From positions 320,001-384,000 of the forward strand of contig OY969807.1 in NCBI GenBank assembly GCA_963703285.1: DNA of 64,000 bases. The letters run 5' to 3'. The DNA is from an uncultured Nitrososphaerota archaeon. GTDB taxonomy: Archaea > Thermoproteota > Nitrososphaeria > Nitrososphaerales > Gagatemarchaeaceae. The notes below the pieces were generated by a model that had not been told where the DNA came from, did no database searches, and saw only the letters and a program-made list of their open reading frames with translations. The translations under genes and the position numbers were made by a program. Positions 1 through 25,340 of this stretch are shown here, one piece after another. Position 1 is the stretch's first letter; every line of letters starts with the position of its first letter.

Positions 1-1
1 C

Positions 2-616
2 TGGATTCAGAGGTTCATCCCTCAAATCTCCGAATATGTCAATTCCCTGACTCCACAACTCTCCGACACTTGGCACGCAGATGAGCTGTTCGTCAAGATG
101 AAGGGCGGGGTCAAGGAGAGCCAGTACGGTCAGAAGAACATGGCCTTCCTTTGGAACGTGATGGACAGGAAGACGCGGTTCCTTCTCGCCTCCAAACTGT
201 CTGAGAAGCGGTGCGTGGTCAGCGCGGCAGGCGCGTTCAGGGAGGCGATTCAGAACGCCCATGAGAGCAGACCGGAGAGAATCTTCACCGACGCGCACAA
301 GTCATACAAGGATGGAATCGAGATTGCCTTCGGTCAGGAGCGCCCCGAGCACATCGCCAAGGCGGGCATGGGCAAGCCCCACGCCAACAACAACCGCATA
401 GAGCGGTTGAACGGGACGCTCCGCGAGAGGGTCAAGGTCCAGCGCGGATGGAAGAGCATGACTTCACAGATCGCCGAAGGTCAGCGTATCCAGTATAACT
501 TCGTCAAGCCTCACATAGCCTTGGATGGGCAGACACCTGCGCAAGCGGCGGGTGTCGGCATAAACGGGAGAGACAAGTGGATGGAACTGCTTAAGAAAGC
601 CATGATACAGGGATGA
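2..616 (+). CDS. IS6-family DDE transposase, 5'-truncated by the window edge
   Basis: Frame is open from nt 2. WHADELFV (first D), IFTDAHKSY (second D) and NNNRIERLNGTLRER (E) match the IS6/IS240-type DDE triad. Confidence 0.9.
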   Translation, partial: WIQRFIPQISEYVNSLTPQLSDTWHADELFVKMKGGVKESQYGQKNMAFLWNVMDRKTRFLLASKLSEKRCVVSAAGAFREAIQNAHESRPERIFTDAHKSYKDGIEIAFGQERPEHIAKAGMGKPHANNNRIERLNGTLRERVKVQRGWKSMTSQIAEGQRIQYNFVKPHIALDGQTPAQAAGVGINGRDKWMELLKKAMIQG

Positions 617-628
617 TGCAGGTAAGCC

Positions 629-841
629 ATGAGAATGTCCGTCTCGGAGGTGGTCGAGATAGCCAAGAAGTTTGTAAGATCACAAGCGGGCTACTCCAGT
701 GTAGAAATTGCATCCGTAGACGCTCTCACACAGCAAGGGAGATGGAAGGTGCTCGCTGACGTGGGATTATTTGCGACCATGAGAAAGGAACTGATAATTG
801 ATGATAGCGATGGAAACATCCTCTCCTACAGGCAAATTTGA
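629..841 (+). CDS. Small hypothetical protein, PepSY-like alpha/beta pattern
   Basis: 70 aa; 'EVVEIAKKF...WKV...IIDDSDGNILSY' resembles PepSY-like folds; lower GC than host genes. Confidence 0.55.
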   Translation: MRMSVSEVVEIAKKFVRSQAGYSSVEIASVDALTQQGRWKVLADVGLFATMRKELIIDDSDGNILSYRQI

Positions 842-1226
842 AAGAATTTCTGAGTATCTAAAGATGCGGGACCAGTATTACAAGAACGCTGAAGAGTTCA
901 TAGGGCGTGGGGAGCTAAGAAAATCATCAGAATTACTCTGGGGTGCAATCTCGCAGAGCATCAAGGCGTTGGGTATACTTGCAAATCAAGAACTCGTCAG
1001 TCATAGGGACTTCTTTCCGTTTATGCAGCAGCTTTCTAAAGAATTAGGCGATCCCAGCTTATACGAGGATTTTGTCGACCTTAACACTCTACACAGAAAT
1101 TTCTATGACGAGTTTATTCCTCCTGAAGCATTTCCACTTTTTTTCAGAAAGGCCACTCTTTATGTCAAGAGAATCAATGACCTGATTCAAACCAAAGTAG
1201 GAAGACCAGCCAGGGAGAAAGGGTAA
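810..1226 (+). CDS. PaREP1-family (HEPN-like) protein
   Basis: 'YYKNAEEFIGRGELRKSSELLWGA...SHRD...LHRNFYD' is the PaREP1 pattern. Start is uncertain (798/801/810). Confidence 0.8.
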   Translation: METSSPTGKFERISEYLKMRDQYYKNAEEFIGRGELRKSSELLWGAISQSIKALGILANQELVSHRDFFPFMQQLSKELGDPSLYEDFVDLNTLHRNFYDEFIPPEAFPLFFRKATLYVKRINDLIQTKVGRPAREKG

Positions 1227-1252
1227 CGCCATCACCCCAAATGAACCACCCC

Positions 1253-1282
1253 GACCCATCACCCCGCTAACGAAGCAGAACC
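1253..1282 (+). repeat. 30-bp repeat copy 1 (putative IS6 right IR)
   Basis: GACCCATCACCCCGCTAACGAAGCAGAACC; 29/30 identical to 1405-1434. Confidence 0.9.
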
Positions 1283-20339: not shown

Positions 20340-20630
20340 ATGAAGTACATGACGGACGCCAACGTGAGCGGTCTCGCGAGGGAGCTGAGGGCGCGGGGGG
20401 TCGACTGCGAGACGGTCCACAGGCTCATGCTGGGGAACGAGGACTCGCGCGTTCCGATATCCGACCCCCAGATCGTCAAGTTCCTTTCTGACAAGGGCGG
20501 CTCGATAACCCTAATCACGCTCGACAGCGAGCTCGCCTCCTACTGCGCCGCCTTCGGAATCTCGTGCATCCGGCTGCAGGACCTCGTCATCGAGCACATC
20601 TCCCCCGCAGGAACAAAGCTACCTAAGTAA
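20340..20630 (+). CDS. Small Mut7-C/DUF5615-like PIN-domain protein
   Basis: MKYMTDANV..LARELR..G.D, SD..I and LITLD.EL motifs. Confidence 0.7.
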   Translation: MKYMTDANVSGLARELRARGVDCETVHRLMLGNEDSRVPISDPQIVKFLSDKGGSITLITLDSELASYCAAFGISCIRLQDLVIEHISPAGTKLPK

Positions 20631-20636
20631 AGTAGC

Positions 20637-20661
20637 GGTTCTGTCAACTCTTCGGCTCATG
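20637..20661 (+). repeat. Terminal inverted repeat at the tnpB 3' side
   Basis: GGTTCTGTCAACTCTTCGGCTCATG; contains the tnpB stop codon. Confidence 0.88.
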
Positions 20662-21816
20662 TCCGAAGGAGTCAACTTCCACCCATCTGCTCGGAGGATT
20701 ACCCGCCTTCTCCTGCCTTCGGGGTTCCCCTTCACCGCTTCTTCTGGGTGGCCGAGCCGCACGAACCTGTGCGGCCATCATGATGTTCCTCGATGCGTTC
20801 GCGTCCCTATCCTCGGTCTTGCCGCAAGAGGGACAGATCACCGTCCGTCCCTCGAATCTCTGAGAGGAGCCACACTTCGAGCAGTTTCGGGACGTGTAGC
20901 GCGGGCTCACGTATGTGACGGGGAGACCCTCCCATCTTGCCTTGTACTCGATTTGCCTTTGAATTTCCCGGAAGGTCCAGGAGTTCATCCTGCCTCTGTA
21001 GACGGCATCCTGCCAATTCCCTTTGCGGTAGAGCTTCCGTATCCCTTTCAGCCTCTCCATGACCGCACCGAATCGCTTCCGTTTCGCCTCCTGAACGATG
21101 GCCCTGCTGATCAGGTGAAGTCTGTGAACCGTCCTGTCCTTTTCCCTCCTTCCGTACTTGCGATAGAGGCGCTGGCTGACTCGTCTGTCCTGCCTTGTCC
21201 GATTTCCTATCTTCGCCCTAATGTCCCTATATCGCTCCCTGAGCTCGGAAATCTCGGAGGTGTCGTACCGGGCCACGCGTCCAGACGCGTCTGACGTGGT
21301 GACGTTCCTCTCGTTCACGTCTAGTCCTACGTTACCTGCGATGTCAATCGTCGCGGATTCCTTCGAGAACGCGATCGAGAGGCCCTGAGGCGTAAGAGTG
21401 ATGGAGCCTTTCCTGAGGCTTGAATCGTCGATGAACGCGAGGTGGTACCTGGAGCCCTGCAGGACAAGGTAGACGAACTGCCTGGGCCTGGTCGGGATCC
21501 TCAACACCATGTGGTTCAGGAGGTACGACTGGCTGTCTAGCTTGAGAAAGACGCGCTTCACGTACGGTCGTGACCTTCTCTCCTTGTTGCGATATATCGA
21601 GAATGCGACTTCGCAGGCCGAAAGCAGGTAGTGAGTGTGGAGACCGTACTCCTTCAGGCGGGAGTATGCGAGCCTGATTAGAGCGAACCTATTCTTGGGC
21701 TTCTCCTGCAATGCTATCCTGATGGCGTCGTTGCACATCAGGCGGAAGTCCTCCAGGAGGGAGCCCAGCTCCTGGGAGTAGGCGTAACTGAACCGGACGG
21801 CCCTGACGGCTCGCAC
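20644..21816 (-). CDS. tnpB: TnpB-family RNA-guided endonuclease
   Basis: RuvC-I GLDVN, RuvC-II VMERL, QIEYKA.W.G, YTSRNCSKCG...CPSCG Zn finger, RuvC-III DRDANASRNI. Confidence 0.93.
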   Translation of the reverse strand: MRAVRAVRFSYAYSQELGSLLEDFRLMCNDAIRIALQEKPKNRFALIRLAYSRLKEYGLHTHYLLSACEVAFSIYRNKERRSRPYVKRVFLKLDSQSYLLNHMVLRIPTRPRQFVYLVLQGSRYHLAFIDDSSLRKGSITLTPQGLSIAFSKESATIDIAGNVGLDVNERNVTTSDASGRVARYDTSEISELRERYRDIRAKIGNRTRQDRRVSQRLYRKYGRREKDRTVHRLHLISRAIVQEAKRKRFGAVMERLKGIRKLYRKGNWQDAVYRGRMNSWTFREIQRQIEYKARWEGLPVTYVSPRYTSRNCSKCGSSQRFEGRTVICPSCGKTEDRDANASRNIMMAAQVRAARPPRRSGEGEPRRQEKAGNPPSRWVEVDSFGHEPKS

Positions 21817-21847
21817 ATCTTCTCTGTTCCGCCGAATACTTAAGCGC

Positions 21848-21872
21848 CATGAGCCGAAGGGGTACTAGAACC
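21848..21872 (-). repeat. Terminal inverted repeat at the tnpB 5' side
   Basis: Reads inward GGTTCTAGTACCCCTTCGGCTCATG. Confidence 0.88.
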
Positions 21873-21914
21873 AAAGTAGCAAAGGTTTTAACGAGTCGGG
21901 CCGGCCAAACTCTC

Positions 21915-24431: not shown

Positions 24432-25340
24432 TCATTGCCAATTATGCCTACCAGTAATCTTTGCCCACCTTCGGTTTCGAAGTGTATAGCTCGAGAGAAA
24501 TGCGACGTATCGACCCTTGAGAGGAACCTCGTTGATTATTGCAATCATGTCGTCGAGTTTGTCCTTCTTGCTGGGAACCGAGAACCCCACGACTGAATGG
24601 TAACGAAAAGCGTTCTGGATGCCGTCAATTCTGATCTGGGATACCTCGTGCCTCCTCGTGAAGGTCTTGCCGCGGCTAGTCATTGCCTCGCCAATCTTGT
24701 GAGTTTTGGCCAGACGTGACTCGATACCCAGACCCGTAAGGAAATCGCTCACCAGCGCCAAGTAGTCCAAATTCGTGTTTGCCGCTCCTATCTCGATTCC
24801 ACTGAACAACTGTTTCTTGTGATTGAGCTTGGGCGAGGCGAAGCCCTCGGCATCGAAGAAACCACGGAGAAAATCGCTTGGAAATGATTCGATCAACTTC
24901 GAGAATTCGTGAATGGGCTGTTGCAGAAAATCATAGAGAACCGCAGAATCGTAGCTGACGGAATAGAATCCTCCGTCTACTGTCACGGTCTTCAGGGTTG
25001 CCCCAAGAACCTGCGCGACCAATTCGTTAAGCAGATTTGCAAATGCTGAATCTGCAAGATTGAACCTCACCCTCTTGTCTTTAGGTCCGGCTGTCCTTCC
25101 ATCCCCAAGATACGCGCCGACGAGGTAGGACAGATCCGGCCTCGGCGTGAGGTCAGGACTATAGACGGTCCTCGAAGGCCGGTTAACCCTGAACCAGTAG
25201 CTCACGTCGCGCCTGCTGATGCCGAGACTTTGCGCAATGTCCCTGATTCCGAGGCCTTTCGACCTCAACTCGTGGACCTTAGAATACAGCTCAACTCTCT
25301 CCTCGAGAGGCCTATGCCTGTAGATTCTCGGCGTCCCCAC
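24432..25340 (-). CDS. Free-standing double-motif LAGLIDADG endonuclease with N-terminal HTH
   Basis: LSYLVGAYLGDG and FLRGFFDAEG motifs; HTH GIRDIAQSLGISRRDVSYW; lower GC than neighbours. Confidence 0.9.
   Translation of the reverse strand: MGTPRIYRHRPLEERVELYSKVHELRSKGLGIRDIAQSLGISRRDVSYWFRVNRPSRTVYSPDLTPRPDLSYLVGAYLGDGRTAGPKDKRVRFNLADSAFANLLNELVAQVLGATLKTVTVDGGFYSVSYDSAVLYDFLQQPIHEFSKLIESFPSDFLRGFFDAEGFASPKLNHKKQLFSGIEIGAANTNLDYLALVSDFLTGLGIESRLAKTHKIGEAMTSRGKTFTRRHEVSQIRIDGIQNAFRYHSVVGFSVPSKKDKLDDMIAIINEVPLKGRYVAFLSSYTLRNRRWAKITGRHNWQ

Follow-up and report, generated by a model that had tools for sequence, protein, structure and literature searches.

A tnpB gene with a predicted omegaRNA was found inside a short archaeal transposon whose ends are of the type of the insertion sequence (IS) family IS6. 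The window, i.e. the whole 64,000-nucleotide (nt) stretch analysed here, spans positions 320,001 to 384,000 of contig OY969807.1 from an uncultured Nitrososphaerota archaeon (family Gagatemarchaeaceae, assembly GCA_963703285.1), whose genome is a single contig and 96% complete. The element occupies 1236 bp at window positions 20637–21872, and its sole gene is tnpB, on the minus strand. It is bounded by IS6-type inverted repeats and a target-site duplication of 8 bp; a covarying RNA structure runs up to the last base of its right repeat; and a T-rich motif lies beside the duplication specifically at the left end. With a probability of roughly 0.65, we read this as a non-autonomous transposon with IS6-type ends carrying tnpB and an omegaRNA, which would be mobilised in trans, would use a guide led by the duplication together with a T-rich target-adjacent motif (TAM), and would spread by homing.

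The function of TnpB has been worked out for IS605 and IS607 elements, where excision is scarless and the target site of the transposase doubles as the TAM. Transposons moved by DDE transposases make duplications and may never excise, which raises the questions of how a TnpB inside such an element obtains its TAM, how it spares its own copy and what it is there for. The lineage described here offers a concrete and testable case of TnpB in DDE-type transposons.

The TnpB protein matched both PF07282 (Cas12f1-like/TnpB TNB domain; E = 9.8e-24, 83.7 bits against a cut-off of 26.3) and NF040570 (guided_TnpB; 116.9 bits, cut-off 100). The aspartate of RuvC-I, the glutamate of RuvC-II, the aspartate of RuvC-III (in DRDxN) and the zinc ribbon were seen by eye in its translation and in its alignment to Cas12f/TnpB chains. 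A preliminary description of the window, made from its letters alone, had stated that the protein tail behind the RuvC-III motif runs into the terminal inverted repeat, and it does: the stop codon (20644–20646) coincides with positions 8–10 of the right repeat, 7 nt from the tip. The two repeats, 25 nt long and 80% complementary, were the longest among 94 inverted pairs in the region, and the 8-bp direct repeat AAAGTAGC adjoins both tips of the element (Table 1).

Table 1 Coordinates (window numbering) of the tnpB element, its predicted RNA and the flanking sequences.
Feature	Position	Strand	Remarks
tnpB gene	20644..21816	-	390 aa; profile matches; RuvC D/E/D motifs and CxxC...CxxC zinc ribbon
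Right terminal inverted repeat, IS6-type	20637..20661		also predicted omegaRNA scaffold 3' end; last 5 tnpB codons and stop
Left terminal inverted repeat, degenerate	21848..21872		15/25 positions match X1 repeats
Target-site duplication, right-end copy	20629..20636		AAAGTAGC on plus strand; 8/8 match to 21873-21880
Target-site duplication, left-end copy	21873..21880		AAAGTAGC; 8/8 match to right-end copy
TATA-like box within left end, possible tnpB promoter	21837..21844	-	copies B, C and R7 have a similar box here
TAM-position motif CCTTT on the tnpB strand	21881..21885	-	on plus strand, BRE-like part of SOD promoter; putative TAM
TATA-like box of SOD promoter	21886-21892	+	directly after BRE-like part
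Predicted omegaRNA scaffold, about 139 nt	20637..20775	-	from RNAalifold and pair counts on 46 right ends
Predicted omegaRNA hairpin 1	20756-20775	-	part of predicted scaffold
Predicted omegaRNA long helix with inner helix	within 20637..20775	-	part of predicted scaffold
Predicted omegaRNA terminal helix	20671-20676 paired with 20643-20648	-	uses repeat bases 7-12
Predicted omegaRNA pseudoknot	loop 20763-20767 paired with tip 20637-20641	-	uses repeat bases 1-5
Predicted guide, 20 nt (length assumed)	20617..20636	-	flank after right end; first 8 nt are the target duplication

The boundaries of the element were supported by a second copy and by empty sites. Copy B (G000:C1:2133237–2134474, where G000:C1 denotes the contig of the source genome) is 84% identical, and its homology to the element ends exactly at both repeat tips; its target duplication has decayed, and the flank after the right end differs between the two copies. 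Scored against a fixed right end, the true left end received 17 out of 22 points (14 for repeat bases and 8 for duplication bases), with the next best of about 750 candidate positions reaching 12. When left and right ends were paired without constraint, the background reached 15–17 out of 22 and only scores of at least 18 were usable, and right ends were therefore fixed by profile. The element lies upstream of a superoxide dismutase (SOD) gene, and none of the 15 same-genus SOD loci inspected (0/15) had an element within 150 nt upstream, all of them keeping the same promoter motif, which resembles a transcription factor B recognition element (BRE) followed by a TATA box. The sequences proposed in the preliminary description for the minus-strand flank behind the right end and for the empty site were both confirmed. 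One of the 15 loci, that of a sister species (L192, G018:C87), contains a homologous left-end remnant (roughly 50 nt by eye) about 40–100 nt upstream of the SOD start, at the same promoter edge as the element here and with different adjoining sequence; it is left either from an ancient insertion common to both species and since deleted, or from a separate insertion at the same promoter.

The IS6 character of the ends, which the preliminary description had missed along with the published inverted-repeat TnpBs of DDE type (PMC10691335), emerged from several comparisons. Terminal GG, a CTGT motif and 8-bp direct repeats are the marks of the IS6 family (review PMC7986276); the tips of the element carry the GG and CTGT, with the cTGTt and caaa motifs of IS6-type ends in place, and the duplication is 8/8 here and at least 7/8 in 23 family-level TnpB insertions. 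When compared with the repeat of X1, a transposase-bearing element of the same genome, the right repeat matched at 18/25 positions (14 of the first 15 by eye) and was more IS6-like than the left one (15/25). Four more TnpB lineages in the genome, with 28–36% protein identity to the TnpB described here, show the same anatomy and all share the tip; their duplications are perfect over 8 bp in C, D and F and 7/8 in E, and the left end of C is damaged. A genome-wide scan for repeat pairs with an 8-bp duplication returned five elements, compared with none in a shifted control, namely three TnpB elements as well as X1 (4626 bp) and X2 (2785 bp), which lack TnpB and have open reading frames (ORFs) matching PF13610 and NF033587 (DDE_Tnp_IS240/IS6-family transposases). 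In total, three IS6 transposase-bearing elements of the genome (X1, X2 and X3) are flanked by these tips, and the genome holds three PF13610 genes. A relaxed version of the scan was too noisy to yield further IS6-type elements (18 observed, compared with 12 and 5 in shifted controls), its credible elements being D, E, X1 and X2 only.

No DDE_Tnp_IS240 transposase is encoded within the element, tnpB being its only gene, and it is therefore not a member of IS6 proper but a non-autonomous element with IS6-type ends. IS6 (DDE_Tnp_IS240) transposases probably mobilise it in trans, that of X1 being the best candidate. Elements with tnpB alone are usually filed under IS200/IS605, and one could regard the present one as an ordinary member (IS1341-type) moved by a Y1 TnpA, its inverted and direct repeats being accidental. 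This account is barely credible: inverted repeats with 8-bp duplications recur in the 23 family insertions and in other families, the same ends flank IS6 transposase genes, and the Y1 transposase profile (PF01797), which does match control genomes, had no match in the source genome. Membership of the IS1341 group was rejected on the presence of the inverted repeat and duplication and on the zero PF01797 matches in the genome.

Several further observations concern the IS6-type elements themselves. X1 (G000:C1:1251536–1256161) encodes a 406-aa SWIM/zinc-finger DDE transposase, along with an 804-aa ORF whose translation resembles an N6-adenine DNA methyltransferase; X2 (2.8 kb) has four ORFs besides its transposase. 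X3 (G000:C1:317994–321282) overlaps window positions 1–1282, with a 417-aa transposase ORF extending to about window position 617 and its PF13610 match at 65–466. The two terminal inverted repeats of X3, at least 24 nt long, do not differ from each other and begin with the GGTTCTG tip of the tnpB element; its right-end sequence is present twice, 152 nt apart, and the second right-end-like copy ends at window position 1434. A 501-bp miniature element at G000:C1:141348–141848, with the same repeat tips, a 7–8-bp duplication and no transposase or TnpB gene of usable length, had been missed by the right-end profile search of the genome. In one IS6 subgroup of related genomes (L162, L163, L165, L167, L168 and L170), direct repeats of 9 bp were found in all six elements with both ends seen, and the tips start with GATTCTG, except in L165 (GGTTCTG). 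TnpB was inside none of 30 IS6 loci and at the edge of one (L169). A candidate composite of IS6 and TnpB in another genome (G080) was rejected, as the IS6 element at that locus is bounded by repeats and a 7/8 duplication of its own and ends ~800 nt before the tnpB start.

We then considered the RNA. The last 100–200 nt before the tip are conserved at the nucleotide level across the divergent TnpB lineages of the genome (five lineages with a shared tip). Covariance among homologous ends, which had been suggested as a check on the predicted omegaRNA, was assessed in an alignment of 46 right ends over 185 nt, comprising six from this genome and 40 distinct ones drawn from 69 family loci in which the profile match had to reach the tip. 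RNAalifold returned nested helices, in which 13/19 pairs keep pairing through two-sided changes. To these we added by hand three pairs of the 5' hairpin and a pseudoknot that pairs the loop of this hairpin (GGTTC) with the last five bases of the element (GAACC). In the full model, 93.3% of cells pair, compared with 79.6% in shuffles (none of 500 reaching the observed value) and ≤50.2% with the partners slid, and two-sided changes occur in 18/27 pairs. Some of the unpaired cells arise because the D, E and F rows stop short of the 5' hairpin in the 185-nt slice, and the inner pairs of this hairpin vary in register from clade to clade and were omitted for that reason. In the helix formed with repeat bases 7–12, pairing is 86.8%, with five of the six pairs changed on both sides. 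The pseudoknot involving repeat bases 1–5 reaches 90.9%, and at two of its positions U-A is replaced by C-G (in four and two sequences). Folding the single sequence recovered the same helices, with the tip unpaired (z = −2.93). A limit of this analysis is that changes in the tip are accompanied by changes in the left repeat (e.g. L045, L075), such that left repeat, right repeat and RNA loop change together. One 25-nt sequence would act both as IS6 site and as the predicted 3' scaffold of the omegaRNA.

Conservation of the right end might alternatively reflect transposase binding and coding constraint only, the omegaRNA ending before the repeat or being absent and the duplication being no guide; the repeat must indeed bind the transposase, and the right repeat is the more IS6-like of the two. 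We regard this as highly improbable, given that repeat bases 7–12 and 1–5 covary with partners 23–130 nt upstream, outside the repeat, that clades differ in the frame in which the conserved module is read (two frames in all), where it does not lie beyond the stop codon, and that miniature elements lacking TnpB keep the module whole. Of the 27 elements tabulated, most have an ORF that stops 7–98 nt short of the tip, and in two the ORF runs past it. The predicted structured RNA overlaps the tnpB 3' end and extends to the final base of the element; with the scaffold ending there and the DNA that follows being specific to each copy, it is the flank, starting with the duplication, that holds the guide position. 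The preliminary description had claimed an omegaRNA running through the repeat with the duplication as guide seed. Its structural side is borne out by the covarying structure up to the last base and by the position of the duplication, while transcription and the guide boundary are what we infer from this arrangement.

The omegaRNA type recurs beyond this genome: matches to the covariance model were obtained in 25 of the 151 genomes sampled from the order, spread over 11 of its 20 families, a count that rests partly on G193, a positive genome marked unpublished. Rfam returned no family at gathering score over the whole window and none at E up to 1 over positions 20500–21000. The TnpBs are compact (about 370–440 aa by longest open frames) and their predicted TAMs short, which may interest genome-editing work. 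Some elements consist of the RNA module without tnpB. R7 (G000:C1:1229977–1230287), 311 bp long, is a miniature element that shares the repeat type of the tnpB element; its 8-bp duplication is perfect, and between its ends lie a TATA-like box and an omegaRNA-like module that is complete. R8 (about G000:C1:1322799–1322924) contains a second, partial module; and miniatures with only the omegaRNA were found in other families (L241, 300 bp; L246, 218 bp). Such guide-RNA-only elements could borrow TnpB in trans.

A comparison of the bases 5' of the duplication across insertions, which the preliminary description had proposed along with a T-rich TAM, revealed, at the left end specifically, a strong motif rich in T. 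The family set comprised 115 loci (109 TnpB loci and the six elements of this genome), with a right-end profile match in 104; 24 of these passed the requirement of at least 7/8 duplication bases plus repeat similarity, L111 among them being probably false. TT at positions −3/−2 was present at 18/24 left sides and 2/24 mirrored right sides (p = 4.6e-6, Fisher test), with a background of 4.7%. Position −5 was C in 14/24 left flanks, and position −1 was never C. Instead, the −1 base followed the TnpB clade, being T in the clade of the present element (10/13), G in two other clades (8/8) and A in D/E/F (3/3). On the TnpB tree this amounts to five changes, compared with a shuffled mean of 11.4, and none of 200 shuffles was as low. 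As a replicate, 39 loci from other families of the order were found with the covariance model. In a looser set chosen by script, TT was present at 6/10 left and 1/10 right ends; in the ten loci with an unshifted end and at least 7/8 duplication bases, two of which are miniature elements without TnpB, it was present at 9/10 left and 1/10 right ends (by eye). The omegaRNA-only miniatures R7, L241 and L246 carry the motif too. Among copies with good repeats but unrelated flanks (e.g. L104, L121, L098 and L125), none of four had TT at −3/−2 (by eye), and these flanks fit IS6-type rearrangements. The one-sided motif lies exactly at the position expected of a TAM, which suggests that it functions as one, and the same sites are host core promoters.

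This last point is a caveat to our reading, and several observations weigh against it. The motif is the reverse complement of the host BRE/TATA, the flank of the present element being the SOD core promoter on the other strand. A TATA-like hexamer was found at −12 to −7 on the left side of 14/23 and on the right side of 3/23 elements in the family set; with a one-base phase tolerance, 12 elements had it on the left alone, one on the right alone and three on both sides. In 30 IS6 transposase loci with ends located by motif, TnpB-less elements were TATA-adjacent as well, at 7/11 transposase-upstream and 6/13 downstream ends, and the difference in orientation bias was not significant (16 left and 4 right for TnpB elements, compared with 7 and 6 for IS6-only elements, p = 0.14); the IS6-only elements used as control are few, were curated by hand and belong mostly to another IS6 subgroup, in which duplications are 9 bp long. 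The clade-specific −1 base could reflect clade-specific partner transposases instead, and the elements are kin, although their insertion sites are independent events. As for mobilisation in trans, IS6 transposase and TnpB showed no excess of co-occurrence among 97 family genomes (IS6 in 23/41 TnpB-positive and 32/56 TnpB-negative genomes, p = 1.0), and several fairly contiguous genomes hold TnpB elements without an IS6 match.

Since TnpB-less IS6 elements also lie at promoter edges, target choice by the transposition machinery explains part of the motif signal, and promoter-edge insertion is a property of IS6-type elements as such, in either orientation. These elements look as if they were targeted to promoter edges, sitting directly upstream of host core promoters and leaving them undisrupted; in this lineage, often ~6 nt separate the duplication from the TATA-like box, with or without TnpB. 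Taken to its end, such an account needs no TAM: the insertion machinery, or selection for harmless sites, would place elements upstream of BRE/TATA, the T-rich motif would merely be the BRE read backwards, and TnpB would use another TAM, or none that matters, with no effect on where copies survive. It is consistent with the SOD promoter flanking the present element and conserved in all 15 same-genus loci, with the TATA-like box at a fixed distance in 14/23 TnpB elements and 13/24 TnpB-less IS6 ends, and with TT being enriched over the background at the latter as well (6/24 by eye). We nevertheless consider it rather unlikely. TT is three times commoner at the left ends of TnpB elements than at IS6-only ends (18/24 versus 6/24, p = 0.0012, Fisher test) and nearly absent from TnpB right ends (2/24 in the family set, 1/10 in the replicate), whereas the TATA box of IS6-only elements lies on either side. 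Moreover, about half of the G-clade insertions carry TTG without a TATA-like box (flanks by eye), the −1 base follows the TnpB clade, and the miniatures with only an omegaRNA have the motif. Our reading combines the two sets of observations: insertion at promoter edges would be due to the transposition machinery, and copies with TnpB would be kept mainly at those sites where a BRE places TTN beside the duplication. The proposed T-rich TAM is in this sense partly supported, by a motif in the TAM position, with part of the signal due to target choice. In IS605 and IS607 the TAM is matched to the TnpA target site (PMC13565253); here the parallel would be a TTN derived from the BRE.

We propose the following mechanism. 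The element would insert with an 8-bp duplication, moved in trans by an IS6 transposase, and transcription of the omegaRNA would either accompany that of the tnpB 3' end or start inside it. The right inverted repeat would go into the last helix and the pseudoknot of this RNA, one 25-nt sequence thereby acting as transposase site, RNA scaffold and coding tail. Transcription would run on into the flank, the guide consisting of the 8-bp duplication followed by unique flanking sequence. On an empty allele, the target would be preceded by the T-rich motif (TTN; C[C/G]TTT in this clade) acting as TAM, a motif that would largely be supplied by the BRE read on the other strand as IS6-type elements of the lineage land at the upstream edge of promoters. 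On the occupied allele, the left junction would present the motif with 8 matching bases only, and the right junction a full match preceded by the element's own tip. With just an 8-base match on the left and no motif on the right, the element would be spared, and the self/non-self geometry put forward in the preliminary description follows logically from these junctions. IS6 transposition is replicative and proceeds via cointegrates, as established for IS26 (PMC7986276); the role of TnpB would therefore be homing, with the element copied into empty alleles, and not the repair of a donor site after excision. A 'non-restorative homing' is discussed in PMC13565253.

Two extensions of this mechanism can be envisaged. 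In the first, the TAM (TTN) would have evolved to equal the BRE on the other strand, making the element a promoter-edge gene drive whose ribonucleoprotein (RNP) cuts empty alleles, on incoming DNA or on further copies of the chromosome, and brings about copying of the element into them. Each insertion in the right orientation would automatically have a TAM beside its 8-base duplication, and the near-uniform orientation of the surviving copies would thereby be accounted for. We offer this tentatively, as an idea with less than even odds. The second is the possibility that the left junction of the element itself, with its TAM and 8-base seed, is a docking site for the RNP as well; lying over the host BRE, the RNP would then influence the neighbouring promoter.

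Part of this arrangement is already known. TnpBs associated with DDE transposases and bounded by inverted terminal repeats, as well as solo TnpBs sharing those ends, were described by Altae-Tran et al. 2023 (PNAS, PMC10691335). As in their DDE-associated branches, TnpB here is inside an inverted-repeat transposon, with its 3' end near (within 250 bp of) the transposon end; as with their solo TnpBs, for which trans-mobilisation was proposed, the ends are shared with transposase-bearing elements (X1–X3). The DDE partners named are IS630 (PMC10691335) and ISL2, IS630 and IS1031 (2026 review, PMC13565253). IS6 is not among the partner families named in the portions of these two papers drawn on here, and the additional loci files may contain such cases; in one supplementary file of PMC10691335, IS6 appears as a search profile only. 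The use of the duplication as seed, the RNA use of the repeat and the promoter-edge motif are not treated in the portions of the PMC10691335 text drawn on. A literature search for TnpB together with IS6, judged by titles and abstracts, found no paper linking the two, and the IS6 review (PMC7986276), in the portions drawn on, mentions TnpB nowhere (0 times) and names a single passenger-carrying member. New in the present case are the IS6-type ends, the repeat that would double as RNA scaffold, the duplication in the position of the guide seed and the one-sided motif derived from promoters.

Other known systems share individual traits with the element. Like IS6/IS26 elements and their miniature inverted-repeat transposable elements, it has GG and CTGT repeats, 8-bp direct repeats and tips shared with the IS6 transposase elements of the genome; unlike IS6/IS26 proper, it has no IS6 transposase, its cargo being tnpB with the predicted omegaRNA. 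The TnpB systems of IS200/IS605 and IS607 (ISDra2 and others, PMC13565253) likewise have an omegaRNA that overlaps the tnpB 3' end, a guide taken from the right-end flank and a TAM 5' of the target that is matched to the preference of the transposase; the pseudoknot with the scaffold 3' end that is stated for prokaryotic systems (PMC13565253) is predicted here too. However, those elements have no inverted repeats and no duplication, whereas the present one has both. Their TAM abuts the left end, and the occupied left junction has no guide match, whereas here 8 matching bases lie in between; and their transposition is excisive (PMC13565253), that of IS6 replicative. Fanzor also provides an RNA-guided TnpB homologue in DDE transposons, here those of eukaryotes with inverted repeats and duplications, and its omegaRNA reaches the terminal repeat (PMC13565253). 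In Fanzor, the TAM includes the 5' duplication and the scaffold includes the 3' one (PMC13565253), unlike the duplication of the present element, which is 8 bp long, differs at every insertion and is in guide position.

Two further TnpB genes of the source genome (G000:C1:684734–685630 and G000:C1:634609–635502) lack an IS6-type right end; they are 28% identical to the TnpB described here and near-identical to each other in their 3' parts, and the sequence upstream of them may hold a recombinase gene, in an IS607-like arrangement. Elsewhere in the window, a 302-aa ORF on the minus strand (24432–25340) contains two LAGLIDADG-like motifs behind an N-terminal part resembling a helix-turn-helix, and may encode a free-standing homing endonuclease.

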